From Escherichia phage 186, in sequence record NC_001317.1: a DNA stretch of 30,624 nucleotides. The stretch is one strand, 5' to 3'. The translations under genes and the position numbers were made by a program. The stretch's first letter is position 1. Each line of letters begins with the position of its first letter. Under the pieces are notes generated by a model, which searched no databases, was not told where the DNA came from, and saw nothing but the letters and a program-made list of their open reading frames with translations. This document shows positions 164 through 30,335 of the stretch, one piece after another.

Positions 164-185
164 AAAAAGCCGCCATGCTGGCGGC
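164..185 (-). terminator. Rho-independent terminator downstream of the portal gene
   Basis: 7-bp GC-rich stem GCCGCCA/TGGCGGC with a 3-nt loop, followed on the minus strand by TTTTT, directly after the portal stop codon. Confidence 0.6.
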
Positions 186-195
186 TTGAGAGGGA

Positions 196-1218
196 TTATT
201 CCGGGTTGTCGAGGGTGTACTCTTTGAACCTGATGACCTCCATGCCGAGCCAGTCGTTTACCTCCCTGAACCTGTCCTGCAGCGGCGACAGGTCGTTACG
301 CACAAATACCTTTGCCACTTTCTCAACGTCACCGAGCGAGCCGATATTCTCGGGCTTGCCGCCCATGAGCTGGAACGGTACGCGGTGCGCGTCCATCAGG
401 TCGGCGGCGCTGGCTTTCTTGATGTTGAAAAAGTCATCCTTTGTGGCGACCTCGCTCAGTGGCACGATTTTAATGCCGTCCGGTTTTCCATTGGGAGCGT
501 AGAAAAACAGGTTTTTAAAATTGCCGAGCCCTTTCGAGTTGCGCATCGCCTCGCGCAGCGATTCGACGTCGGTCGCGCTCTGCGCCGGGTCGGTCACATA
601 CATGATGTAACCCGCATGCGCGCCGTTCTGGTAATACTTGCGGCGGAACAGCGTTGCGGATTCATTCAGCCAGGCGGAATTAAGCGCGCTGAGATATTCG
701 GGCAGGCCGTAAATCTCCTGATTAATGTCGGGCTCCAGCAGGTGAAACACGGTATCAGGCGCGAATTCATGCGGCAGAGTGAAGTTTTCCACAAACCAGA
801 AAACCGAATCGTCGACCCCGCGGCGGGTGTATTTGGCCGGTGAGGCCAGTAGCTTGATTAGCTGGCCGGTAACGCTGTGGCGCTGCTCAAGAAAGGCGTT
901 GCCGAATACCAGATAGTCGAGCGCAAAGCGGCTGAAATCCTGACGGGACAGCAGCGGGTGCGGGATGTAGGTGCTCGCGAGCACGTTGCGCTTAACGTAA
1001 ATCGGTGAGCTGTGATGTACAGCAGAGCGCAGGCTCTTTGCCAGCCCGGAGAAGCTGACCGGCGGCTCGTACCATTTGCCGTTACTGATGCACTCGACAT
1101 AATCCAGAATGTCGCGCTTATCGAGTACCGGCACTGGCTCGCCAAAGGTGAACGCCTCCATTTTTTGCGGGGCGCTGGCGGTCATGGCTACCTGTTTGCG
1201 TGGCTTGCGCTTGCTCAT
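196..1218 (-). CDS. Portal protein (P2 gpQ homolog)
   Basis: 340-aa ORF starting MSKRKPRKQ; size, position next to cos and sequence match P2-family portal proteins. SD GAGGTGG upstream. Its ATG overlaps the stop of the upstream ORF (ATGA). Confidence 0.93.
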   Translation of the reverse strand: MSKRKPRKQVAMTASAPQKMEAFTFGEPVPVLDKRDILDYVECISNGKWYEPPVSFSGLAKSLRSAVHHSSPIYVKRNVLASTYIPHPLLSRQDFSRFALDYLVFGNAFLEQRHSVTGQLIKLLASPAKYTRRGVDDSVFWFVENFTLPHEFAPDTVFHLLEPDINQEIYGLPEYLSALNSAWLNESATLFRRKYYQNGAHAGYIMYVTDPAQSATDVESLREAMRNSKGLGNFKNLFFYAPNGKPDGIKIVPLSEVATKDDFFNIKKASAADLMDAHRVPFQLMGGKPENIGSLGDVEKVAKVFVRNDLSPLQDRFREVNDWLGMEVIRFKEYTLDNPE

Positions 1219-1961
1219 GCTGCCACCTCACCCGCTGCAACAGCGAAAGACCAGTCGCAGCCAAACAGCAGGCGATAATCATCGTCGCTGTATTCGTGTT
1301 TAATTTCATCGGGCGCAAAGAGATTGCACCCGCGCTGGCATGCTGCATCCAGAGTGACCGACTGACGCCAGACACCATCTGTACAAAATACGCTGTCGCC
1401 GGTATTGATGAGCGGTGACGGTCGGTGCCTGCGGGTTGTGCCGTTCCATACCCTGAAAGCGTCATAATTATCAGAGGGCGAGGTAAACATCGTCAGGCTG
1501 TGGCGTTTATGGCAGGCGATACCCGCCGCGACTTTCGCAGCTCTTAGCGGGTTATTGAACCATCCGAACTCATCAAGATAGACATTACCCGCCAGTGCGG
1601 CGCAATGGGATTCCTCGCCGACAAAGCTGATAACCGCACCGTCGTCGAGCTGCAGGCTGTGGCCGTTACTCGTAAGACTGACGCCGACGCGCGCCGAAAG
1701 GTTACTCATGTACATCAGCGCCACGCGCGCATGCTCAATAGTGTGAGCAAACCAGACATGATTATCGCCTGTTGTCAGCGCATCGAGCAGCGCCTCACGG
1801 CTAAAGAGCTGCGTTGCGCCAATCTGGCGCGATTTGGTGATGCTGCGGTCGATATTGAGTTTCCCGACACGCAACCATGTTGCCTGATAGTCAAAGCTGT
1901 CATTGTGCAGAATATCGGCCATTGCCTGAATCTGGCTTTGTGAGAAAACGTTATTTTTCAT
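1215..1961 (-). CDS. Terminase large-subunit ATPase-domain paralog (truncated, no nuclease domain), function unknown
   Basis: 248-aa ORF translationally coupled on both sides (TAATG with terminase stop, ATGA with portal start), with SD GGAG 8 nt upstream. Clear similarity to the central region of the adjacent terminase: KSRQIGATQLFSREALLDAL vs KSRQIGATFYFSREALLRAL; VYLDEFGWF vs LYVDEIFWI; DGVWRQSVTLDAACQRGCNLF vs DGQWRQIVTIEDALAGGCTLF. Confidence 0.8.
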   Translation of the reverse strand: MKNNVFSQSQIQAMADILHNDSFDYQATWLRVGKLNIDRSITKSRQIGATQLFSREALLDALTTGDNHVWFAHTIEHARVALMYMSNLSARVGVSLTSNGHSLQLDDGAVISFVGEESHCAALAGNVYLDEFGWFNNPLRAAKVAAGIACHKRHSLTMFTSPSDNYDAFRVWNGTTRRHRPSPLINTGDSVFCTDGVWRQSVTLDAACQRGCNLFAPDEIKHEYSDDDYRLLFGCDWSFAVAAGEVAA

Positions 1962-3730
1962 TAATTAAACTCCAGAATGGATTTAGGCTGTATGCCGCTA
2001 CCGGCGGAAAGCGGTTCGTTTAACAGGGCGTGCATGGTCGCCCATGCAATATCGGCGTGACTGGCTTCCTCGGTGCGGCTGGCCTCGTAGGTGGCGCTGC
2101 GCCCGCTGCTGGTCATGGTTTTGCGGATGGACATAAACGACTGCGTGACGTCGGTTGCTCCGGCGTCGTACTCCAGACAGCCGCGGCGAATGGTGTCTTT
2201 TGCCTTGAGTACCATTGCGGTTTTCATTTCAGGCGTGTAACGGATGCCGCGTGCGGCCGGGTAGAATGAGCGCACCAACTGGAACACGCCGAGGCCGAGG
2301 CCGGTTGCGTCAATGCCGATGTATTCGACGCTGTATTTCTCGGTCAGTTTGCGGATGCCATCTGCCTGCGCGGCAAAGTCCATGCCCTTCCACTGGTGGC
2401 GCTCCAGCATGCGGAACTTGCCACCAGAAACCACCGGCGGCGCGAGCACGACGCACCCGGCGCTGTCGCCAGTGTGTGACGGGTCGTAGCCAATCCAGAC
2501 GGGGCGAGAGCCGAACGGATGGTCGGCGAACGGGGCGAAGTCCTCCCATTCTTCCATCACGTCGACCATGCAGCGCTGCAGCTCCTCGAACGGGAATACC
2601 GACGCTTTATCGTCGACAAACTCGCACATAAACAGGTTTTTAAAGTCCTCATCACTGTTTTCGCGTTTGAGTTGGTCGAGGTCGAACAGGGTGCAGCCAC
2701 CGGCAAGGGCGTCCTCAATGGTGACAATCTGCCGCCACTGGCCATCGTCGCAGAGCTGGCCACCGGCGAGCGCGCGGTGACTGATGTCAATTTCGATGCG
2801 GTCGGCAATACGGCTGCGCCCCTTGTTGAACAGCTCGCCAGACCAGAAGGGATAAGCGCCGTGCGCCAGCGTTGAGGGTGTCGAAAAGTAGGTTGAGCGC
2901 AGATGCTTCTGCGAGGCCATGCCCGAGGCGACTTTGCGCAGCTTCTGAAAATTCGGGATCCAGAATATTTCATCGACATACAGGTCGCCGTTATGGCTCT
3001 GAGCCGTGTTGGAGTTGGTACCGAGAAAAATCAGCTTTGCGCCGTTGTTGCCAATGACAATCGGGTCGCCGGTCAGGTCGACGTCAACCAGTCGCGCAAA
3101 CTGTATGATGTATTCGCGGAACACGTAAGCCTGCGTTTTACTGGCCGACAGAAAAATCTGGTTATGGCCGGTCTTGAGTGCTCGCAGCAGTGCCTCACGG
3201 GAAAAATAGAACGTCGCGCCAATCTGGCGGGATTTGAGAATGTCGCGAATACGGTGTGCCAGTCCTGCGCGGTACCACTGCAACTGGTACTCGAAAGACT
3301 GGTCGAAAAATAATTCCTCCAGCTTTTCGATAGCCTCGTCGCTGAAAAAATTCTTTTTCGGCTTCTTGCGCTCACCCTTGTTGCGGTTGGCGACGTTGGG
3401 GTTAAGGTCGGCCTCGTTGCCGGTCTGGCTGTAGCGGTTAACGCGTGCCAGTCGTTCAATCTGCCGCCCGAGCAGGTCAATCTCTTTGAAGTCACCGCCT
3501 GACTTTTGCGGCTTGGCGATGAGCTGAATCAGGCGCGCCTCAAGGCTGCTTTCAACGCGGGAAATCGGTGCGATGCCATCCCAGCCGTCGCGCTGTTTCC
3601 AGCTCTGCACGGTCGGGCGCTTGACCTGCAGCATTTCGGCAATCTGCGGCACGGAAAAACCCTGCCAGTAAAGCAGCGATGCCTGTCGTCGCGGGTCATG
3701 CAACAAGGTTGTATCGGTGGAAATGGTCAT
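1961..3730 (-). CDS. Terminase large subunit, ATPase plus nuclease (P2 gpP homolog)
   Basis: 589-aa ORF MTISTDTTLLHDPRRQASLLYWQGFSVPQIAEMLQV... with an N-terminal HTH-like region, a deviant Walker A (KSRQIGAT), Walker B (LYVDEIFW) and a C-terminal nuclease-like region (VWIGYDPSHTGDSAG). SD GAGG upstream. Confidence 0.93.
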   Translation of the reverse strand: MTISTDTTLLHDPRRQASLLYWQGFSVPQIAEMLQVKRPTVQSWKQRDGWDGIAPISRVESSLEARLIQLIAKPQKSGGDFKEIDLLGRQIERLARVNRYSQTGNEADLNPNVANRNKGERKKPKKNFFSDEAIEKLEELFFDQSFEYQLQWYRAGLAHRIRDILKSRQIGATFYFSREALLRALKTGHNQIFLSASKTQAYVFREYIIQFARLVDVDLTGDPIVIGNNGAKLIFLGTNSNTAQSHNGDLYVDEIFWIPNFQKLRKVASGMASQKHLRSTYFSTPSTLAHGAYPFWSGELFNKGRSRIADRIEIDISHRALAGGQLCDDGQWRQIVTIEDALAGGCTLFDLDQLKRENSDEDFKNLFMCEFVDDKASVFPFEELQRCMVDVMEEWEDFAPFADHPFGSRPVWIGYDPSHTGDSAGCVVLAPPVVSGGKFRMLERHQWKGMDFAAQADGIRKLTEKYSVEYIGIDATGLGLGVFQLVRSFYPAARGIRYTPEMKTAMVLKAKDTIRRGCLEYDAGATDVTQSFMSIRKTMTSSGRSATYEASRTEEASHADIAWATMHALLNEPLSAGSGIQPKSILEFN

Positions 3731-3895
3731 TGATGCCTCGCCGTAATGGATTCAGGGCAAGGCTACTTAATGGCCGTCAGTGATTCGCTAAGGTGCTGTT
3801 GTGTGGGCGGTTGTCCAGTCGTCATTGGTGGTCTGGCGTGTCCTGAGTCTGGAAACTGGCGGTGACCAGTAACCCCAACCTCAGGACTCCTGACA
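3731..3895. promoter_or_regulatory. Divergent late promoter region between the terminase operon (leftward) and the scaffold/capsid operon (rightward)
   Basis: 165-bp non-coding gap between divergently oriented late operons, as in P2 (P_P/P_O). No perfect TGT-N12-ACA activator dyad could be picked out by eye. Confidence 0.4.
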
Positions 3896-24666: not shown

Positions 24667-24893
24667 TGGCCGACGCAATGGATTTAGCACAACTGCGCGA
24701 GCAGGAAGACCGCGAACGCCACATAAGCAACGCGCGCAGCCGTCGCCATGAGGTTTCTGCATTTATCTGTGAGGAATGCGATGCACCTATCCCGGAAGCG
24801 CGCCGCCGAGCCATACCGGGCGTGCAGTGCTGCGTTACCTGTCAGGAAATCTTAGAGCTGAAAAGTAAACATTATAACGGAGGTGCTTTATGA
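24666..24893 (+). CDS. TraR/DksA-family C4 zinc-finger protein
   Basis: 75-aa ORF whose ATG overlaps the previous stop; CEEC-x17-CCVTC zinc-finger pattern (FICEECDAPIPEARRRAIPGVQCCVTCQE), typical of phage TraR-like proteins. Confidence 0.7.
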   Translation: MADAMDLAQLREQEDRERHISNARSRRHEVSAFICEECDAPIPEARRRAIPGVQCCVTCQEILELKSKHYNGGAL

Positions 24894-25474
24894 GCATTAC
24901 CAATGCAACTATTAGCCAGCGTGCAAAAAAATGGCTTGAAGATGACCGTATATTTATTGACACCGAAACTACGGGTTTGGGTGATGATGCGGAAATAGTA
25001 GAAATCTGTTTAATAGATAGCGCTGGTTTTATCATGCTAAATACATTGGTTAAACCAACTAAACCAATTCCAGCAGAGGCTACGGCCATTCATGGAATAA
25101 CTGATGAAATGGTTATGTATGCGCCAACGTGGAAAGATATTCACGGCGCAGTAGCTTCTTTATTTTTTGAGTATGGCTTTGTTATTTATAACGCCGATTA
25201 CGACACAAGACTTATATATCAAACTGCGAAATTATATGGGCTTGAGAATGACGGCTTTTGTTATTTTTTAAATGAGCGTTCGGCCTGCGCCATGATGCTA
25301 TATGCAGAGTATCGCGGCGAGCCAGGGCGATTTAAAGGTTATAAATGGCACAAATTAGTTGATGCCGCTGCACATGAAGGGGTTAGCGTTGAAGGAAAGG
25401 CACACCGTGCATTAGCAGATTGCCGGATGACTCTTGGCATTATCGACGCTTTGGCAAAAGGCGGTGCAGCATGA
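24890..25474 (+). CDS. DnaQ-like (DEDDh) 3'-5' exonuclease
   Basis: 194 aa with Exo I (FIDTETTGL), Exo II (VIYNADYD) and Exo III (HRALADC) motifs; translationally coupled; AT-rich. Confidence 0.8.
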   Translation: MSITNATISQRAKKWLEDDRIFIDTETTGLGDDAEIVEICLIDSAGFIMLNTLVKPTKPIPAEATAIHGITDEMVMYAPTWKDIHGAVASLFFEYGFVIYNADYDTRLIYQTAKLYGLENDGFCYFLNERSACAMMLYAEYRGEPGRFKGYKWHKLVDAAAHEGVSVEGKAHRALADCRMTLGIIDALAKGGAA

Positions 25475-25746
25475 GTATCCGTATCGAAATAGGTGATAAA
25501 TGGGTAATCACCAGCGACCAATATCAATTCATCCTGAATGAAAAAAAAGTCGTTAAGACCGGCAATAAAGCTGGCGAGGAATGGCTCGACACCATCGGTT
25601 ATTACCCGAAGATTAATCAGCTCATTTCTGGTCTGGTACATCACCACATTCATACGGCAATGATTATTTCCCTTAGTGCAATGGCAGAGGAAATAGAGAA
25701 GTTATCTTTTATCTGTGAAGAAGCATTTAAGGCGGTTAAAAAATGA
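25471..25746 (+). CDS. Hypothetical early protein
   Basis: The ATG at 25471 overlapping the exonuclease stop gives 91 aa (MSIRIEIGDKWVITSDQYQFILNEKK...); no recognisable motif. Confidence 0.55.
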   Translation: MSIRIEIGDKWVITSDQYQFILNEKKVVKTGNKAGEEWLDTIGYYPKINQLISGLVHHHIHTAMIISLSAMAEEIEKLSFICEEAFKAVKK

Positions 25747-26747
25747 TTGATTCCCGCTGCTTTGCTGAAAGCACAATAAATATTGTTTCTGTTTCTGGTG
25801 GAAAGGACAGCCTTGCTCAATGGATTCTTGCGGTAGAGAACGACGTACCGCGCACCACTGTTTTTGCAGATACCGGGCATGAGCATTCCCAAACAATGGA
25901 GTATCTGGATTATCTTGAATCCAGACTCGGCCCGGTTATTCGAGTGAAAGCCGATTTTACTCGGCGGATTGAAGGCAAACGGAAATTCATTGCTGAAAAA
26001 TGGCCTGTCTCTCTCGTTGAAGAATGCGGAATGTCTCATGAGCAGGCTGCAGAACGAATCGCAAAGGCACTGGAAATCCTTAAGCCAACCGGTAATCCGT
26101 TTCTCGATTTGTGCATGTGGAAAGGACGGTTCCCGAGCACGAAAGCAAGGTTTTGTTCACTGGAACTGAAACATGACTCAGTACGGGACAAGATTGTACT
26201 CCCAGCGCTGGAGAAATATGACGAAGTAATTCTATGGCAGGGTGTTCGTGCTCAGGAGTCACCAGCCCGCGCTGCGTTACCTATGTGGGAGGAGGATGCA
26301 GATAATACCCCCGGTTTGCATGTGTATCGCCCAATTCTTAACTGGACACATGAAGACGTATTTGCCTTAGCTAAACGACACGGAATTAAACCGAACCCAC
26401 TCTATCAGCAAGGTTGTAGCAGAGTTGGCTGCATGCCATGTATTCATGCAAGAAAATCTGAGCTGGCAGAGATTTTTGCTCGCTGGCCGGAGGAGATTGC
26501 GCGCGTTGCAGAGTGGGAACGTCTTGTTGCTGCCTGTTCACGTCGGGGAAACTCAACATTTTTCCCTTCGACTCACGACCCGCGGCGAGCAGAAAAACGT
26601 ATTGAAGTTGTTACCGTAGAAGAATATGGGATAGCTTCATATCGTGACTGGGCGATGACTACGCGTGGCGGTTCTCAGTACGATTTGCTCGCTGCTACAA
26701 ACGACAAAACTGTGTGCAGTAGCGTTTATGCCGGTGTATGTGAATGA
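25743..26747 (+). CDS. PAPS reductase-like / PP-loop ATP-pyrophosphatase family protein (DndC-like fold)
   Basis: 334 aa with the N-terminal PP-loop SVSGGKDS and a C-terminal Cys cluster (GCSRVGCMPC); translationally coupled upstream and with gene A downstream. Confidence 0.8.
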   Translation: MIDSRCFAESTINIVSVSGGKDSLAQWILAVENDVPRTTVFADTGHEHSQTMEYLDYLESRLGPVIRVKADFTRRIEGKRKFIAEKWPVSLVEECGMSHEQAAERIAKALEILKPTGNPFLDLCMWKGRFPSTKARFCSLELKHDSVRDKIVLPALEKYDEVILWQGVRAQESPARAALPMWEEDADNTPGLHVYRPILNWTHEDVFALAKRHGIKPNPLYQQGCSRVGCMPCIHARKSELAEIFARWPEEIARVAEWERLVAACSRRGNSTFFPSTHDPRRAEKRIEVVTVEEYGIASYRDWAMTTRGGSQYDLLAATNDKTVCSSVYAGVCE

Positions 26748-28828
26748 CGGGTGTCGTTTACGCGTTTCCGTGGAATGCCCCACGGTCGGCAATAGCCAGC
26801 TCATATCTTACCTATGACCAACAGCATCGCCGCGACCGTATGTTCGCGGCTTTGCTGCATGCGAGAAAGGTGCTTTTTCTCCAGCCAGAATGTGTGCGCT
26901 TTGACGTTTATCGCACCGCTGCAGTTCTGGAGCAAAATCAGGGCAGTCAACGAGCCAATGCCTTTTTAATCAGCTTCTGCAAAAAGGCATTACCACGTCT
27001 TGAACTGGTCGCAAAAAAATACGAGTGCTCGGGCATCAACAGCAATGTATCAGCCGCTGTTTTCGATGGTCATTTTGATACCCAGCTTATGCAATATCTG
27101 GCGTCACGCATGGTCAATATGGTCGCCAGATTTAACCGCCTCCCGGATATGTCGCGCGCCGATATTGACCTGCTGGCCGCGGATATCGCTAATTTTATTC
27201 GCGCTGAACTGGCCGACATTGATGACACCGGATTTAGCGAACTCAAAACGCTGTACACTTGGTACATGCGCGCCGGTTTTATTTCCCTGCAATTCAACGT
27301 TACACCGCCGAAATGGGAGCGTGTGACTAAAAAATATTTTTGTGAGGATGAAATCGCACCGGCAGTAATGCGCATGTTTAATGAGGTTTGGTGGCGCGGC
27401 CGCTTGCGACGCATTGCGGCTGCATGGCGCGAACATCTGCAAATTGCAGTCGGCAACGTAAGCAAGAAACGACACGCATACGCGAGTAAAAACTGCGTCA
27501 CCGACTGGCGCGAGCAGAAGCGCCGCACGCGCGAATTTCTCAAGGGGCTGGATCTCGAAGACGAAGAAGGCAACCGCATCAGTCTGATTGAAAAATACGA
27601 CGGCTCGGTCGCTAATCCAGCAATACGCCGCTGTGAGCTGATGGCCCGCATTCGTGGGTTTGAAAATATCTGTAATGAGCTCGGTTATGTCGGGGAGTTC
27701 TATACTCTGACTGCACCGTCTAAATATCACGCCACCACCAAAGCGGGCTACCGTAACAGCAAATGGAACGGTGCAAGCCCGTCAGACACGCAGAGCTATC
27801 TCACAGGCCTTTGGGCACGCATACGCGCCAAGCTGCACCGGGAAGAAATCCGCATTTTCGGAATACGCGTCGCTGAACCGCATCACGATGGAACGCCGCA
27901 CTGGCATATGCTTATGTTCATGTTGCCGGAAGATGTCGAGCGTGTGCGACTCATCATCCGAGATTATGCGTGGGAGGAAGACCACTACGAACTGAGAAGC
28001 GATAAAGCCAAAAAGGCGCGCTTCCATGCTGAGGCCATTGACCCGGAAAAAGGCAGTGCTACTGGCTATGTCGCTAAATACATTTCCAAAAATATCGACG
28101 GTTATGCTCTCGATGGTGAAACCGATGACGAAAGTGGTGAGTTGTTAAAAGAGACTGCACCCGCCGTTTCAGCATGGGCGGCGCGCTGGCACATCCGTCA
28201 GTTTCAATTTATCGGCGGTGCGCCGGTGACGGTATACAGGGAGCTACGCAGAATGGCTGACCCTGAAACAGCCAGGGCGCTCAGTGTTGAATTCGCCGCA
28301 GTGCATGATGCTGCTCACTATGGACGCTGGGCTGATTATGTGAATGCTCAAGGCGGACCATTCGTTCGCCGTGACGATTTACAGGTACGTACATTGTATG
28401 AACCTCGAACTGAATTTAATCAGTATGGCGAAGAAACTGTGTGCATCAAAGGTGTCTACGATGCCTCGATAGGTGCTGGCTCTCCTATTCTAACCCGGTT
28501 AACGCAGTGGAAGATTGTTCCAAAGCGTGCCGTTGATTTGGCCGTTGACGTTAAGGGCGCTTCTGCGCCCTCTCGGAGTTCTGTCAATAACTGTACGGGA
28601 AGCGAAAGCGATCCACCGATACTCGATTTAACAAAACCGCTGAGTCGGCGTGAAAGACGAGAGTTGACGAACCGACTCAGGAAGAAAAAGCCAACAACAC
28701 GGCGAAAATTCATCCACGGAACGGATAAGCAAAACGTCGCTATAACGAAAACTATCGACGAGATACACTCTGACAACCGGCATCACAATCAGCCGGGGCG
28801 AAGCCCTGCACCTGATGGCCGGTGGTAA
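26744..28828 (+). CDS. A: Rolling-circle replication initiator endonuclease (P2/186 gpA family)
   Basis: 694 aa with the HUH-type motif (HHDGTPHWHMLMF) and active-site tyrosine region (GYVAKYISKNIDGYAL); last gene of the early operon. Confidence 0.92.
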   Translation: MTGVVYAFPWNAPRSAIASSYLTYDQQHRRDRMFAALLHARKVLFLQPECVRFDVYRTAAVLEQNQGSQRANAFLISFCKKALPRLELVAKKYECSGINSNVSAAVFDGHFDTQLMQYLASRMVNMVARFNRLPDMSRADIDLLAADIANFIRAELADIDDTGFSELKTLYTWYMRAGFISLQFNVTPPKWERVTKKYFCEDEIAPAVMRMFNEVWWRGRLRRIAAAWREHLQIAVGNVSKKRHAYASKNCVTDWREQKRRTREFLKGLDLEDEEGNRISLIEKYDGSVANPAIRRCELMARIRGFENICNELGYVGEFYTLTAPSKYHATTKAGYRNSKWNGASPSDTQSYLTGLWARIRAKLHREEIRIFGIRVAEPHHDGTPHWHMLMFMLPEDVERVRLIIRDYAWEEDHYELRSDKAKKARFHAEAIDPEKGSATGYVAKYISKNIDGYALDGETDDESGELLKETAPAVSAWAARWHIRQFQFIGGAPVTVYRELRRMADPETARALSVEFAAVHDAAHYGRWADYVNAQGGPFVRRDDLQVRTLYEPRTEFNQYGEETVCIKGVYDASIGAGSPILTRLTQWKIVPKRAVDLAVDVKGASAPSRSSVNNCTGSESDPPILDLTKPLSRRERRELTNRLRKKKPTTRRKFIHGTDKQNVAITKTIDEIHSDNRHHNQPGRSPAPDGRW

Positions 28829-29043
28829 AAGTTGTTTTAACGGTCGATGGGTGCGCGGAACGTCAAAAGGTGAAATCTTTGCTGCAGCTCCTTCACATCA
28901 GGCGAGACGCGGAAAATCCTTAATCGTGTTGCAGATTTAGCTGAGCTGGCAACGAAAATGTAACCGCTAATATTCATCCATATCATGTACATACAGTGTA
29001 TTTAACTGTGATTTTTTTCTTCACACCTTTTGCCAATACGTGC

Positions 29044-29063
29044 TACTGTATGTTTATACAGTA
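29044..29063. promoter_or_regulatory. LexA box (SOS operator) overlapping the promoter of the antirepressor gene
   Basis: TACTGTATGTTTATACAGTA fits the CTGT-N8-ACAG LexA consensus (17 of 20 against TACTGTATATATATACAGTA). A possible -35 TTGCCA (29031..29036) and -10 TATACA (29055..29060) overlap it. Confidence 0.8.
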
Positions 29064-29081
29064 TCTCGTAGTGGAGGTTGT

Positions 29082-29522
29082 GTGGATAGAGAGCTAAATG
29101 AGCACGTTATGATTGAGCGGGTCGAAATGATTGCGCGTCTGACTGCTGAAGGTACTTGTCAGGAAAGAGACCGTGAAATCGCATTGAATCTAATTGCGGA
29201 AATAGCAAGAGGCAACCTAATGAAAAATAATAATTTTTCTGTTGTTTTTTCCGCACCGCCTGTTGGTGAAACATTTGCAAAGGAGGGCAAAGTGAAAGTA
29301 AATATCACGTTGGATAAAGACCAAAAAATCGGCCAGCCGGTAATTGATGCTTTTCAGTGCGAATTGACCAAGCGAATACAGTCCGTTTTCCCGTCAACGC
29401 GCGTTACTGTTAAAAAGGGATCCATGACCGGTGTCGAGCTGATGGGGTTCGATAAAGATTCAGACCGCGAAGCGCTGGATAGCATCCTTCAGGAAGTGTG
29501 GGAAGATGAGAGCTGGCGTTAA
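29082..29522 (+). CDS. tum: SOS-inducible antirepressor with DinI-like C-terminal domain (186 Tum-type)
   Basis: GTG start at 29082 with SD GGAGG 5 nt upstream gives 146 aa. The C-terminal region ELTKRIQSVFPSTRVTVKKGSMTGVELMGFDKDSDREALDSILQEVWEDESW resembles DinI. Sits directly downstream of the LexA box; start-codon choice is inferred. Confidence 0.8.
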   Translation: MDRELNEHVMIERVEMIARLTAEGTCQERDREIALNLIAEIARGNLMKNNNFSVVFSAPPVGETFAKEGKVKVNITLDKDQKIGQPVIDAFQCELTKRIQSVFPSTRVTVKKGSMTGVELMGFDKDSDREALDSILQEVWEDESWR

Positions 29523-29547
29523 TCCCTGAAAAATGTGCAACCATCGA

Positions 29548-29578
29548 CCCCATGTTTGATAGCATGGGGTTGTTTTGT
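29548..29578 (+). terminator. Rho-independent terminator after the antirepressor gene
   Basis: CCCCATG-TTTGATAG-CATGGGG hairpin followed by TTGTTTTGT. Confidence 0.6.
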
Positions 29579-29603
29579 ATGGGATTACACACAAAGGAAA
29601 ATC

Positions 29604-30335
29604 ATGGATACCGTAATAGCATTTTTATCTCTGGCTCTCTTTATTGCTTTTATCGTCGGGTTAATCAAGCCGTCGCTGGTTCGAATGCCGAGCCGTAAGC
29701 GCTCCAGTGCTGTTTATCTCGGTGGCTGTCTGGCGCTGGGCGTTATTGGCTCAATCTTATGGCCGACTGAAAAAACTCAGCCGGTGGCAAAAACTGACGT
29801 ACCGGCGGTTAAAGCGGAACCGGCTACGCCAACGTTTGAGTACGCAGATAAAACCCTCAAAGAATATCGCAACGAGCCAAAAGAAACCCGGCACGAAATC
29901 GTTAAAGACTATGTTGGATTCAAAGGTGTGCAGGCCAGCGCTACCGATGTTTTTTATGCCTGTATGAGCGAGTACACTTTTACCAAAGATGATGCGTTAA
30001 AGCTCAGTGATGTGTTGGGGTGGTGTTTCAACGACTTCGAGAAAGATCCACAATCTCTGAATAATAAAATCAACCTTGACGAATTTCAGGGTAATTTTAG
30101 CGGTTGGGATGGCTCTTATCGCCCGTTAGAGAAGCTGATAAAAGCCAGTATGAATGATGATTCCTCTTATAAACATGTTTCAACGGTCTACCATCTGATT
30201 TTGAATAAAGACCCGCATGCCGTTGTAAAAACAACGTTTCGCGGCACTAATGCTTATGGTGGCGTGGTCAAACAGACCGTAGCAGCACGCGTCAACGTGC
30301 GAACGGGCGAGGTCGATTCAATACTCGACAATTAA
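29604..30335 (+). CDS. Membrane-anchored protein of unknown function (N-terminal TM helix plus about 200-aa soluble domain)
   Basis: ORF-track start 29535 would read through the terminator; the ATG at 29604 with SD AAGGAAA gives 243 aa. One hydrophobic helix (VIAFLSLALFIAFIVGLI), a second hydrophobic stretch (VYLGGCLALGVIGSILW), then a hydrophilic domain. Confidence 0.65.
   Translation: MDTVIAFLSLALFIAFIVGLIKPSLVRMPSRKRSSAVYLGGCLALGVIGSILWPTEKTQPVAKTDVPAVKAEPATPTFEYADKTLKEYRNEPKETRHEIVKDYVGFKGVQASATDVFYACMSEYTFTKDDALKLSDVLGWCFNDFEKDPQSLNNKINLDEFQGNFSGWDGSYRPLEKLIKASMNDDSSYKHVSTVYHLILNKDPHAVVKTTFRGTNAYGGVVKQTVAARVNVRTGEVDSILDN

Follow-up and report, generated by a model that had tools for sequence, protein, structure and literature searches.

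Few molecular motors have been studied as thoroughly as the large terminases, which are also a main target of the pattern-recognition immunity of bacteria (Avs1-3, Upx). In P2-family phages this enzyme is gpP (W in phage 186), which has an N-terminal HTH/Terminase_5 region, an ATPase domain and a nuclease domain, and its gene P is directly adjacent to the portal gene Q in P2, SEN1 and vB_EcoM-613R3, the arrangement that the preliminary description of this DNA had taken as normal for P2-type phages. Extra terminase-derived polypeptides beside the full-length enzyme are known from phage T4, where shorter isoforms of gp17 arise from internal starts of the same gene and share its sequence. Separate small phage proteins that resemble the TerL ATPase, T4 vs.8 and Ksap1/Ksap2, are limited to certain lineages, and their genes do not adjoin the terminase gene (PMC13601566, PMC11564622); these stand-alone folds engage Avs2 and were suggested by the authors to be possible anti-defence proteins (PMC13601566). 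Finally, the phiO18_21 product of Aeromonas phage phiO18P, labelled "truncated terminase ATPase subunit", is an ATPase-only protein whose gene, flanked by terL and the portal gene, has codons that overlap with theirs.

Here we analyse an extra copy of this kind that is kept under selection in one phage lineage. The window, that is the whole stretch of 30,624 nucleotides (Escherichia phage 186, NC_001317.1), represents an EtG/PSP3-like phage, and a gene between the packaging enzyme and the portal protein, here called S, is conserved in phages of the 186/PSP3 type. Alignment with SEN1 and P2 shows a clean extra segment of 747 nt exactly between the P stop and the Q start. The features of the locus are collected in Table 1.

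Table 1. Features of the P-S-Q locus in the window
Feature	Position	Strand	Basis
Putative rho-independent terminator 3' of gpQ, GCCGCC-AGCAT-GGCGGC then TTTTT	164..185	-	Sequence reading
gpQ, portal protein, 340 aa	196..1218	-	Pfam Phage_portal; Q homolog in PSP3 and EtG annotation
ATGA junction, S stop/gpQ start overlap	1215..1218	-	Sequence reading
S, 248-aa stand-alone TerL (gpP) ATPase-domain paralog	1215..1961	-	ORF, ATG start
GAGGTGG, Shine-Dalgarno-like for gpQ, within the 3' end of S	1223..1229	-	Sequence reading
DGVWRQSVT, codons D195-T203, block common to gpP	1353..1379	-	Alignment
VYLDE, codons V127-E131, Walker B Asp130 and catalytic Glu131	1569..1583	-	Alignment
EESHCA, codons E116-A121, in place of the gpP TN..TAQ loop before the Walker B strand	1599..1616	-	Differential conservation
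Deviant Walker A KSRQIGAT, codons K43-T50, identical to that of gpP	1812..1835	-	Alignment
Adenine-binding Q motif, codons F23-D-Y-Q26	1884..1895	-	Alignment
TAATG junction, gpP stop/S start, one-base overlap	1959..1963	-	Sequence reading
gpP, full-length large terminase, 589 aa	1961..3730	-	Pfam Terminase_5/HTH, Terminase_6N, Terminase_6C
GGAG, Shine-Dalgarno-like, 8 nt upstream of the S start	1970..1973	-	Sequence reading
Intergenic region between the divergent P and O operons	3731..3895	.	P2 analogy

The S product is, with near certainty, a domain-level paralog of gpP that consists of the ATPase domain alone. BLASTP aligned it with residues 125-371 of the neighbouring gpP (which the PSP3 and EtG records name P or terminase large subunit) at 92 identities out of 248 (37%, E=3e-44), a match that, judged by the alignment, is far beyond chance. 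Its sole Pfam domain is Terminase_6N (PF03237, residues 41-237, E=3.3e-19). The protein begins near gpP residue 125 with no match to PF06056 or to an HTH (Terminase_5 region), and it ends near residue 371 with no match to PF17289, i.e. to the Terminase_6C or RNase H-like nuclease domain. It also lacks PF05944 (Phage_term_smal) and is therefore not a small terminase subunit of the gpM type; the gene with that domain sits downstream of the capsid gene in the related Yersinia, Pectobacterium and Hafnia loci. The PHROG profile phrog_3746 covers S residues 1-247 with its positions 123-374 (E=4.6e-122), NCBIfam holds no model that matches S, and a sequence search of the PDB with the S family profile returned nothing at E<=1. 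Matches there came from the fold search alone: the AF2 model (pLDDT 86) was placed by Foldseek closest to the ATPase domains of T4 gp17 and P74-26 TerL, and the Avs3-bound PhiV-1 terminase was also among the matches. Pairwise alignment, Pfam, PHROG, structure prediction and fold search thus bear out the preliminary description, in which an ATPase-only terminase paralog, about 35-40% identical by eye to the central region of gpP and devoid of the N-terminal HTH region and the C-terminal nuclease, had been proposed. The stand-alone TerL-ATPase-like fold of the vs.8/Ksap type is present in S as well (AF2 model, Foldseek), but profile comparison with vs.8 detected no homology (hhalign probability 0.2%, E=0.28), and unlike the genes of those proteins S adjoins the terminase gene. 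From the gp17 isoforms it differs in being a separate, diverged gene for the ATPase domain only.

The gene is embedded tightly in its surroundings. The gpP stop (TAA, 1963-1961) shares a base with the S start (ATG, 1961-1959), and the S stop (TGA, 1217-1215) overlaps the gpQ start (ATG, 1218-1216); both shared junctions, as well as the Shine-Dalgarno sequence of S, had been recognized in the preliminary description and can be read directly in the DNA. At the position equivalent to the GGAG upstream of S, a ribosome binding site is annotated in phage Midge. S overlaps or abuts the gpP and portal genes also in Yersinia, Pectobacterium, Hafnia and Enterobacter relatives, the 4-nt overlap being identical in the Yersinia and Pectobacterium relatives and, at the S/Q junction only, in the Hafnia relative. 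S would therefore be the middle gene of a late P-S-Q transcript, its translation probably coupled to that of gpP upstream and the translation of gpQ probably coupled to that of S, and its expression is probable. By analogy with P2, whose annotation shows pP/pO promoters and an activator binding site in its P-O intergenic region, the late promoters and the activator site are expected between the P and O operons of the window too. At the other end, a probable terminator closes the operon at the place where tQ is annotated in P2; since it was absent from the listing of the consensus scan, we infer it only from its sequence and this analogy. Around S itself the search for an internal promoter or terminator gave nothing above shuffled expectation, and separate transcription by such elements was rejected. 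Foreign origin of S was rejected in view of a GC content equal to that of the neighbours. A frameshift fusion of gpP and S at TAATG was rejected too: a stop codon interrupts the S frame one codon upstream of the ATG, a slippery heptamer is lacking, and the junctions vary between lineages.

Like gpP, S of the window has the entire ATPase domain with the deviant Walker A, Walker B, catalytic Glu, Q motif and DGxWRQxVT block. The canonical set is complete (K43, R45, G48, T50, D130, E131), and the Q-motif Gln and the S/T-rich C motif are also kept. KSRQIGAT (43-50), VYLDEFGW (127-134) and DGVWRQSVT...GCNLF, all noted at first reading, are indeed there, and the window protein retains all residues required for binding ATP-Mg and probably also those for hydrolysing it. 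The retention of Walker motifs holds for this copy but not for the class. We compared 34 short copies with 55 full-length gpP representatives for seven residues (Walker A Lys, Arg, Gly and Thr/Ser; Walker B Asp; catalytic Glu; Q-motif Gln). The six Walker A/B and catalytic residues were intact in 55/55 gpP, and all seven were kept in 52/55 gpP versus 16/34 short copies (Fisher p=5e-7); at least one was missing in the other 18 of the 34, and the Q-motif Gln was retained in 32. Among the substitutions are Walker A T->D combined with Walker B D->G in the Yersinia clade, Glu131Asp in PSP3, and Walker B E->Q or D->N in several copies. As far as the sequences tell, catalysis is not the conserved feature of the short-copy class.

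Two motifs of gpP also distinguish the full-length enzyme from the short copies. The SA[ST]..Q motif is found in 55/55 gpP versus 2/34 short copies (the window has FAHTIEHA at that place), and the [ST]N..[ST]AQ loop in 45/55 versus 0/34 (GEESHCA in the window). Residues T238, N239 and Q244 of gpP are 91-98% conserved in the 55 gpP (Q244 98%) and only 3-6% in the 34 short copies, where the degraded loop is often acidic. In a weak, low-probability hhalign alignment, obtained as an anchored alignment in permissive local mode and not in global mode, the loop falls where P74-26 TerL has R128 and R139. In that enzyme R128 belongs to the DNA-binding patch and R139 acts in trans as the arginine finger (PMC5389665). 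The ATPase-only copies amount to a natural experiment that separates the parts of TerL serving the motor from those with other roles: all those examined are without the same conserved loop, and about half are without a canonical catalytic or nucleotide-binding residue.

The preliminary description implied that S was novel, which is less so, since orthologues are already annotated in several phage records: PSP3 orf2 (PSP3p02), EtG_02, CPTMidge_002 and SW9 gp02, besides the phiO18P protein. Further orthologues occur in SI22, BIS20, vB_YenM_201.16 and vB_YenM_56.17. The identity is 91-96% in the PSP3/EtG group and 46% in the Yersinia phages; it is the same gene in the same place, with no biological difference from S of the window. 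Literature searches, mostly outside subscription papers, returned no study that discusses the gene. As a gene, S was thus known before.

Distribution of S in other P2/186-like genomes, which the preliminary description had proposed to check, is patchy: it is present in some and absent from near-identical others. It was found in 8 E. coli genomes, compared to 1649 carrying gpP, and in 2/80 IMG/VR loci. SEN1 and the Y. pestis Eganvirus phages have flanks 93-95% identical and lack S, yet they are viable; likewise, phiO18P has a short copy and phiA051 does not. As these close relatives without S are viable phages, S is dispensable for viability.

Dispensable as it is, S is intact and under purifying selection. 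Its dN/dS is 0.10-0.19, with bootstrap upper bounds <=0.41 and no replicate reaching 1, and the orthologue dS of 0.13-0.34 is divergence enough to be measured, so these are not just recent transfers. Full-length open reading frames occur in about 30 clusters, and length (245-254 aa) and position are held down to 43% identity across many genera. The intact frame reported in the preliminary description therefore stands, and the frameshifts or stops in relatives that would have spoken for a pseudogene were not found in these clusters; degraded or chimeric copies were seen in Symbiopectobacterium (P0032, L116). The constraint is looser than in the neighbours: in dN, S exceeds the gpP ATPase domain by a factor of 2-5, and in the Yersinia clade dN/dS is 0.26-0.35 for S versus 0.01-0.04 for P and Q.

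The preliminary description spoke of an inserted paralog. There is indeed an extra gene between P and Q, but it is better described as a partial duplication of gpP, and apparently a repeated one. Eight further loci from other P2-like phage or prophage lineages (L022, L023, L024, L103, L104, L105, L107 and phage phiO18P) have a short ATPase-only frame directly after gpP, with the portal gene next where the contig allows, and here too the frame overlaps or abuts its neighbours; an additional locus, L106, is too short to display gpP or portal. In 5 of the 8 the nearest relative of the short copy is the gpP beside it, suggesting more than one origin of ATPase-only copies among P2-like phages, and the domain boundaries are the same in copies of apparently separate origin. 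The phiO18P copy looks like a separate and younger event than that of the window. Its counterpart in the Aeromonas prophage L103, a copy with the Walker A Arg->His substitution, matches it at 88% identity and the TerL of its own locus at 61% (71-75% for the DNA in register), and in-register DNA repeats are shared between short copy and gpP in both L103 and L104. Neighbour-joining bootstrap values for clades of a short copy with its cognate gpP are 2-43%; because of this weak support, the case for multiple births rests on the best-hit margins and the in-register repeats. S of the window, about equally distant (36-38%) from its own and from foreign gpPs, seems to be the product of an old partial duplication. 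Recent gene conversion between S and gpP was rejected here, as they share no DNA repeat beyond short chance matches. A candidate betaproteobacterial S family was also discarded, its approximately 70 GTDB loci at 34-37% identity being all full-length gpP.

What could such a protein do? Tentatively, and with somewhat less than even confidence in the reading as a whole, we propose that S, a partial gpP duplicate retained by purifying selection, binds nucleotide but does not translocate DNA, and acts as an accessory partner of the packaging machinery. The ATPase domain of gpP or the portal would be its binding target, and it would adjust how the motor or the cos-cutting complex assembles or works, being neither a second motor subunit nor a usual terminase subunit. 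Among the functions offered in the preliminary description, modulation of packaging ATPase assembly is thus our best guess. In ring ATPases a subunit without motor motifs that joins the ring is expected to poison it; therefore the proposed interaction must be of another kind. The position of S beside gpP may merely reflect its birth by local duplication, compare locus L018, where the short-copy gene is positioned after the portal gene.

One would argue instead that S is a conflict gene, a counter-defence factor or a by-product of immune pressure, for example a partial ligand, sponge or inhibitor of Avs1/Avs3 sensing or of TerL-binding inhibitors. We consider this unlikely, but it is the alternative that survives best. 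A conflict gene would account for the sporadic distribution of S among near-identical phages no less well than a packaging regulator would, and the apparent multiple births, the faster evolution of S than of its neighbours and the free loss of catalytic residues across the class point the same way, as do the Avs2-engaging analogues vs.8 and Ksap1/2 and the Avs3-bound PhiV-1 terminase among the fold matches. However, the isolated TerL ATPase domain strongly activates EcAvs2 and suffices for Upx (PMC13601566), so that a stand-alone ATPase domain should be a trigger and not a decoy, and a decoy of Avs2 or Upx is disfavoured. In addition, at 37% identity to its own gpP the protein would be a poor mimic for a sequence-specific binder, and it would be expressed late, alongside its supposed target.

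The dominant-negative option, in which S is a weapon against the motors of competing P2-like phages or of satellites borrowing the helper terminase, appears improbable. An ATPase-only protein without the conserved loop before Walker B could be suited to it, and co-resident P2-like prophages exist, with up to 4 gpP copies within one E. coli genome. But S is about equally distant from own and foreign gpPs, so that nothing would make it spare the motor of its own phage. P4 and similar satellites rely on the gpP of their helper, and poisoning it would harm the helper equally; moreover, S sits in the late operon and is probably silent in the prophage.

We give equally little credence to S as an ATP-dependent DNA binder outside translocation, which would hold cos ends or concatemers or take part in a process other than packaging. 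In other ATPases, Walker B E->Q or D->N substitutions trap the ATP-bound state, and several short copies carry exactly these. The isolated ATPase domain of P74-26 TerL is required for tight binding of DNA in the ATP-bound state and also suffices for it (PMC5389665). Against this, the loop with the equivalent of the DNA-binding R128, as placed by the low-probability alignment, is degraded in S and often acidic.

Still less probable is a genuine second motor subunit that would sit in the pentameric gpP ring and hydrolyse ATP for DNA translocation. The window copy, co-expressed with gpP, does keep the Q motif, Walker A Lys and Arg, Walker B Asp, catalytic Glu and C motif. Nevertheless, half of the short copies are without catalytic residues that all 55 gpP retain, the TN..TAQ loop is gone from all of them and SAS..Q from nearly all, the Yersinia clade has lost Walker A Thr and Walker B Asp together, PSP3 works as a laboratory phage despite its Glu131Asp, and relatives without S are viable. 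That S is a neutral or decaying remnant of tandem duplication, an option of the preliminary description to which its rarity in E. coli P2-like prophages and the degraded Symbiopectobacterium copies might speak, we reject as most implausible in view of dN/dS intervals far below 1, an intact frame of constant length and position, conserved start/stop overlaps and the shared domain boundaries of copies with apparently separate origins.

It is conceivable, if on the doubtful side, that stand-alone copies of the TerL ATPase domain form a recurrently evolved class, often of pseudo-ATPases, which are born by local duplication of gpP, are quickly without the motor-specific loop and are kept for phage-host or phage-satellite conflict or for capping or regulating TerL oligomers; in the P2 family they would then correspond to the unexplained T4 vs.8 and Ksap proteins. 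PSP3, EtG and Midge, which grow on E. coli, Salmonella or Erwinia, are tractable systems for the function of vs.8 and Ksap1/2 as well, and natural relatives without S exist.

The records of S orthologues carry the labels "terminase large subunit" or "terminase, ATPase subunit". The label "terminase large subunit" leads to terminases being counted twice and has already misled at least one genome paper: the EtG report counts S among "two subunits of terminase", a wording that the domain content of S, as read from its sequence, does not support.

The protein S, encoded between the genes of the large terminase gpP and the portal gpQ, aligns with gpP residues 125-371 at 37% identity (BLASTP, E=3e-44), and its limits coincide at both ends with those of the gpP ATPase domain. 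Terminase_6N is its only Pfam domain; PHROGs places it in phrog_3746, 'terminase large subunit' (4.6e-122), and NCBIfam holds no model for it. The AlphaFold2 model, built on 35 homologues (mean pLDDT 86, pTM 0.87), shows S as a predicted folded TerL ATPase domain, and its best PDB matches are the ATPase domains of T4 gp17 and Thermus phage P74-26 TerL and the PhiV-1 terminase with Avs3. The preliminary description of a terminase ATPase-domain-only paralog between the two genes was therefore correct. The motifs it named are also present: Walker A in its deviant form KSRQIGAT, which gpP shares exactly, Walker B VYLDE with Asp130 and the catalytic Glu131, and the DGVWRQSVT block. The Q motif (FDYQ) and the S/T-rich C motif (FTSPS) are kept as well.

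The window is a complete genome of a 186/PSP3-type P2-like phage; over its first 4 kb it shares 95.5% identity with Erwinia phage EtG, 95.2% with Escherichia phage Midge and 93% with Salmonella phage PSP3. One base is common to the stop of gpP and the start of S (TAATG), the S stop and the gpQ start have three (ATGA), and GGAG stands 8 nt upstream of the S start, which bears out the codon overlaps and the separate Shine-Dalgarno sequence proposed earlier. P and Q were said to be normally adjacent in P2-type phages, and they directly abut in P2, SEN1 and vB_EcoM-613R3; in the alignment the window has a single extra segment of 747 nt, exactly from the P stop to the Q start. Since no promoter or terminator signal above chance was found in the S region and its GC content is that of its neighbours, we read S as the middle gene of a putative late P-S-Q operon, a position that suits co-expression with gpP and the portal. 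The portal N-terminus (about 15-25 residues, basic and K/R-rich) differs in length and sequence between phages with S, such as that of the window, and those without it (SEN1, P2 and others), and the protein is conserved from '...MEAFTFGEP' onward, so that the junction region is a variable spot.

Coordinates of the terminase-portal genes and of other features in the window and in compared loci
Feature	Sequence	Coordinates	Strand	Length	Remarks
gpP, large terminase	window	1961..3730	-	589 aa	Terminase_5/HTH, Terminase_6N and Terminase_6C domains
S	window	1215..1961	-	248 aa	middle gene of three in a row
gpQ, portal	window	196..1218	-	340 aa	third of three consecutive genes
RNase T/DEDD-type exonuclease domain protein	window	24890..25474	+	194 aa	PF00929; early region
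PAPS-reductase-domain protein	window	25743..26747	+	334 aa	PF01507, E=1e-43
Replication gene A	window	26744..28828			
Two ORFs next to right cos end	window	29040..30335	+	160 aa (from first GTG); 266 aa	
S of PSP3 (orf2)	L001	1217..1963			Glu131Asp
Split gpP (S and portal intact)	L108	1234..3001			Erwinia tracheiphila ICMP 5845 chromosome
Genes in P-Q-S order	L018	6001..9834			Logan contig ERR2853776_117
Broken S region	L116	1526..3754			
Extra gene past portal	L005	7801..8190		129 aa	Yersinia P2-like phage
Extra gene past portal	L020	4301..4690		129 aa	Yersinia P2-like phage
Extra gene past portal	L021	4301..4690		129 aa	Yersinia P2-like phage

A search of 5.8 billion proteins returned about 30 clusters of stand-alone proteins of 245-254 aa, with 95% down to 43% identity to S, from Enterobacter, Edwardsiella, Hafnia, Pectobacterium, Yersinia and other hosts, and the nearest full-length terminases were only about 37% identical. 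In prophages of Yersinia, Pectobacterium, Hafnia and Enterobacter, S lies between a gpP of 589-590 aa and the portal, with overlapping or abutting codons. Within the window clade, pairwise Nei-Gojobori dN/dS was 0.10-0.19 for S (bootstrap upper bounds at most 0.41, no replicate at 1), compared with 0.02-0.06 for gpP and 0.03-0.06 for gpQ, and S changes at the protein level 2-5 times as fast as the gpP ATPase domain. The window and a Yersinia prophage share 73% amino-acid identity in gpP, 68% in gpQ and 44% in S, and in the Yersinia clade dN/dS is 0.26-0.35 for S against 0.01-0.04 for P and Q. These data show that selection on S is purifying but relaxed. The suggestion that S might be a decaying duplication does not hold, because the gene is maintained at such dN/dS values in the window clade and keeps its length down to 43% identity.

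The gene is patchily distributed. Window-type gpP is found in 1649 of 5426 complete E. coli genomes and S in 8; stand-alone ATPase-only relatives of the gpP ATPase domain (short copies, S included) occur in 2 of 80 P2-like loci of an IMG/VR sample and in nine distinct phages among about 486 P2-like records of the phage collection. GTDB, with one genome per species, has the window-type S family in Erwinia tracheiphila, Citrobacter, five Pectobacterium species and Yersinia proxima, and in degraded form in Symbiopectobacterium. Close relatives with and without the gene coexist (EtG and PSP3 versus SEN1 and the Y. pestis phages; phiO18P versus phiA051), which shows that S is dispensable for phage viability. 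In the E. tracheiphila prophage of L108, whose S (248 aa) has 96% identity with the window copy, both S and the portal gene (340 aa) are intact and gpP is divided among at least three ORFs of 218, 132 and 222 aa; either the terminase is truly a pseudogene there or long-read errors were left uncorrected. In L116 the S region consists of short ORF fragments, as would be expected of a prophage that decays in a symbiont.

The same architecture recurs in distant P2-like lineages. When 1.84 billion cluster representatives were searched exhaustively with a profile, the best 150 matches included at least 27 proteins of 222-285 aa that aligned end to end as an ATPase domain alone, the remainder being gpP-type terminases of about 570-650 aa. 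Gene context was looked up for seven of these short proteins and one relative on a viral contig: in seven loci (L022, L023, L024, L103, L104, L105, L107) a short ORF separates the portal gene from a gpP-type ORF, which in L105 and L107 runs off the contig; on the 1-kb contig L106 nothing is seen but the short ORF and the first part of a downstream ORF that overlaps it. In five loci the short copy is closest to its own neighbouring gpP: 61% against 47% for the next-best gpP in L103 (Aeromonas type, as in phiO18P), 63% against 54% in L104, 45% against 39% in L105, and 53-61% against 47-52% in L023 and L024, whose gpPs score alike. In L103 and L104 a DNA identity of 71-82% remains between the short copy and the ATPase region of gpP, the two being offset by a constant 1406 or 1411 nt. 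We found no such DNA-level repeat between window S and gpP, and window S is about equidistant (36-38%) from all gpPs. The matches to the own gpP and the in-register repeats thus suggest that gpP was partially duplicated several times, separately and at different dates; the event behind the window S clade would be an old one. Multiple births are our inference, because groupings of S with its cognate gpP have weak bootstrap support in the neighbour-joining tree; gene conversion is the alternative account. One lineage (L018 and L019, the latter Logan contig ERR15835544_620) has the order P-Q-S, with S 22 nt past the portal stop. The 212-aa protein P0032 of Candidatus Symbiopectobacterium looks like a chimera of gpP and S: from its N-terminus past Walker A as far as '...NQIF' it is the same as Pectobacterium gpP, and beyond that point it is S-like, which suggests a deletion via recombination between the two paralogs.

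We compared motifs in 55 full-length gpP representatives and 34 short copies. All 55 gpPs have an intact set of Walker A Lys, Arg, Gly and Thr/Ser, Walker B Asp and catalytic Glu; with the Q-motif Gln counted, 52 are fully canonical, and the other three look like alignment gaps. By the same count only 16 of the 34 short copies are fully canonical (Fisher p=5e-7). Walker A Lys is lost in eight short copies, the catalytic Glu is Gln in P0125 and P0132, and Walker B Asp is Asn in P0076 and P0139. Walker A Thr changed to Asp is always paired with a non-Asp Walker B (7/7, Yersinia clade included). Asp at Walker A position 8 (GAD) occurs only where Walker B Asp has become Gly, Ser, Ala or Pro, the sites of this pairing being the Yersinia S clade (P0028-P0030; L005, L020, L021), P0044, P0045, P0065, P0069, P0113 and P0131; it might be that the Mg-binding carboxylate was relocated rather than simply lost, and the seven copies may have one shared ancestor, hence a single event. 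In PSP3 alone the catalytic Glu131 of S is Asp (VYLDDF), while the 97%-identical SW9 keeps Glu; either the laboratory phage truly differs here or its old record contains a sequencing error.

Two further motifs separate the groups: SA[ST]..Q (gpP 195-200) is present in 55/55 gpPs and 2/34 short copies, and the [ST]N..[ST]AQ loop immediately ahead of the Walker B strand (gpP 238-244, with Q244 98% conserved) in 45/55 gpPs by the strict pattern and in none of the 34. Acidic residues often replace this loop (GEESHCA in window S), and almost all short copies show both losses, irrespective of where they seem to have come from. Common to gpP and short copies are, among others, Q149, R162, F176, E179, G188, G248, W257, T280, D329, R333, T337 and C369 (gpP numbering). 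In a permissive hhalign comparison of low statistical support, the gpP profile and P74-26 TerL coincide at the Q motif, P-loop, Walker B, C motif and domain end, and the lost loop falls where P74-26 TerL has R128 and R139. Judged from these residues, catalysis is not the conserved property of the class, and the motor-type loop is always gone; our inference is therefore that S does not serve in the ring as a translocating subunit.

The reading with the best support, which we propose tentatively, is that S may be a nucleotide-binding accessory partner of the packaging machinery; its binding partner would be either the ATPase domain of gpP or the portal, and it would modulate how that machinery assembles or works. 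The main rival, a role in conflict, seems rather unlikely to us, although the patchy occurrence of S, its apparent repeated births and its fast evolution would agree with it. A parallel exists in T4 vs.8 and Ksap1/2, which stand alone, have a TerL-ATPase-like fold and unknown function, activate Avs2 and are suspected by their describers to be possible anti-defence proteins (PMC13601566). vs.8 and S have no detectable sequence relationship, so the resemblance is of kind and not of family, and a simple decoy role is opposed by the activation of EcAvs2 and Upx by an isolated ATPase domain (PMC13601566). A second motor subunit is less likely, given the missing loop, as are a dominant-negative weapon, a separate DNA-binding role and, for a gene under purifying selection, a neutral remnant.

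The S gene is already in databases under a misleading name and is apparently unstudied; we found no discussion of it among the papers searchable. Its PSP3 orthologue, PSP3p02, is annotated 'similar to 186 W; similar to orf3; orf2', and others are EtG_02, CPTMidge_002 and SW9 gp02, with further ones in SI22, BIS20 and the Yersinia enterocolitica phages vB_YenM_201.16 and vB_YenM_56.17; the names given are 'terminase large subunit' or 'terminase, ATPase subunit', and the counterpart in Aeromonas phage phiO18P is a 'truncated terminase ATPase subunit'. The other 186-type records inspected all lack S. The EtG genome announcement calls EtG_02 and EtG_03 'the two subunits of the terminase', with 98.8% identity to the 186 terminase subunits (PMC5824000). 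Domain content does not support this reading: by that measure EtG_02 is an ATPase-only paralog and not the small subunit, whose gene (PF05944) follows the capsid gene in related loci. What is added here is that the S gene is under selection, that its architecture recurs in distant P2-like lineages, probably via several births, and that a specific pattern of motif loss sets short copies apart from working terminases; if the class acts in immunity or motor regulation, its interest would be high.

Other genes of these phages deserve mention. The PAPS-reductase-domain gene of the window lies directly upstream of replication gene A and overlaps it, and L018 has a similar gene in the same place. Next to the right cos end, the last 60 residues of the 160-aa ORF form a DinI-like domain; the 266-aa ORF, without a Pfam match, is possibly cargo in the variable region near cos. 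The extra gene of the Yersinia phages starts one base past the portal stop and is annotated 'exonuclease', with no Pfam match on record. In L018 and L019 two genes lie beyond S, close to the probable cos end: one encodes a 557-aa AAA_15/AAA_21 ATPase, the other a 333-aa product without a Pfam match, and together they look like a candidate two-gene defence cargo.
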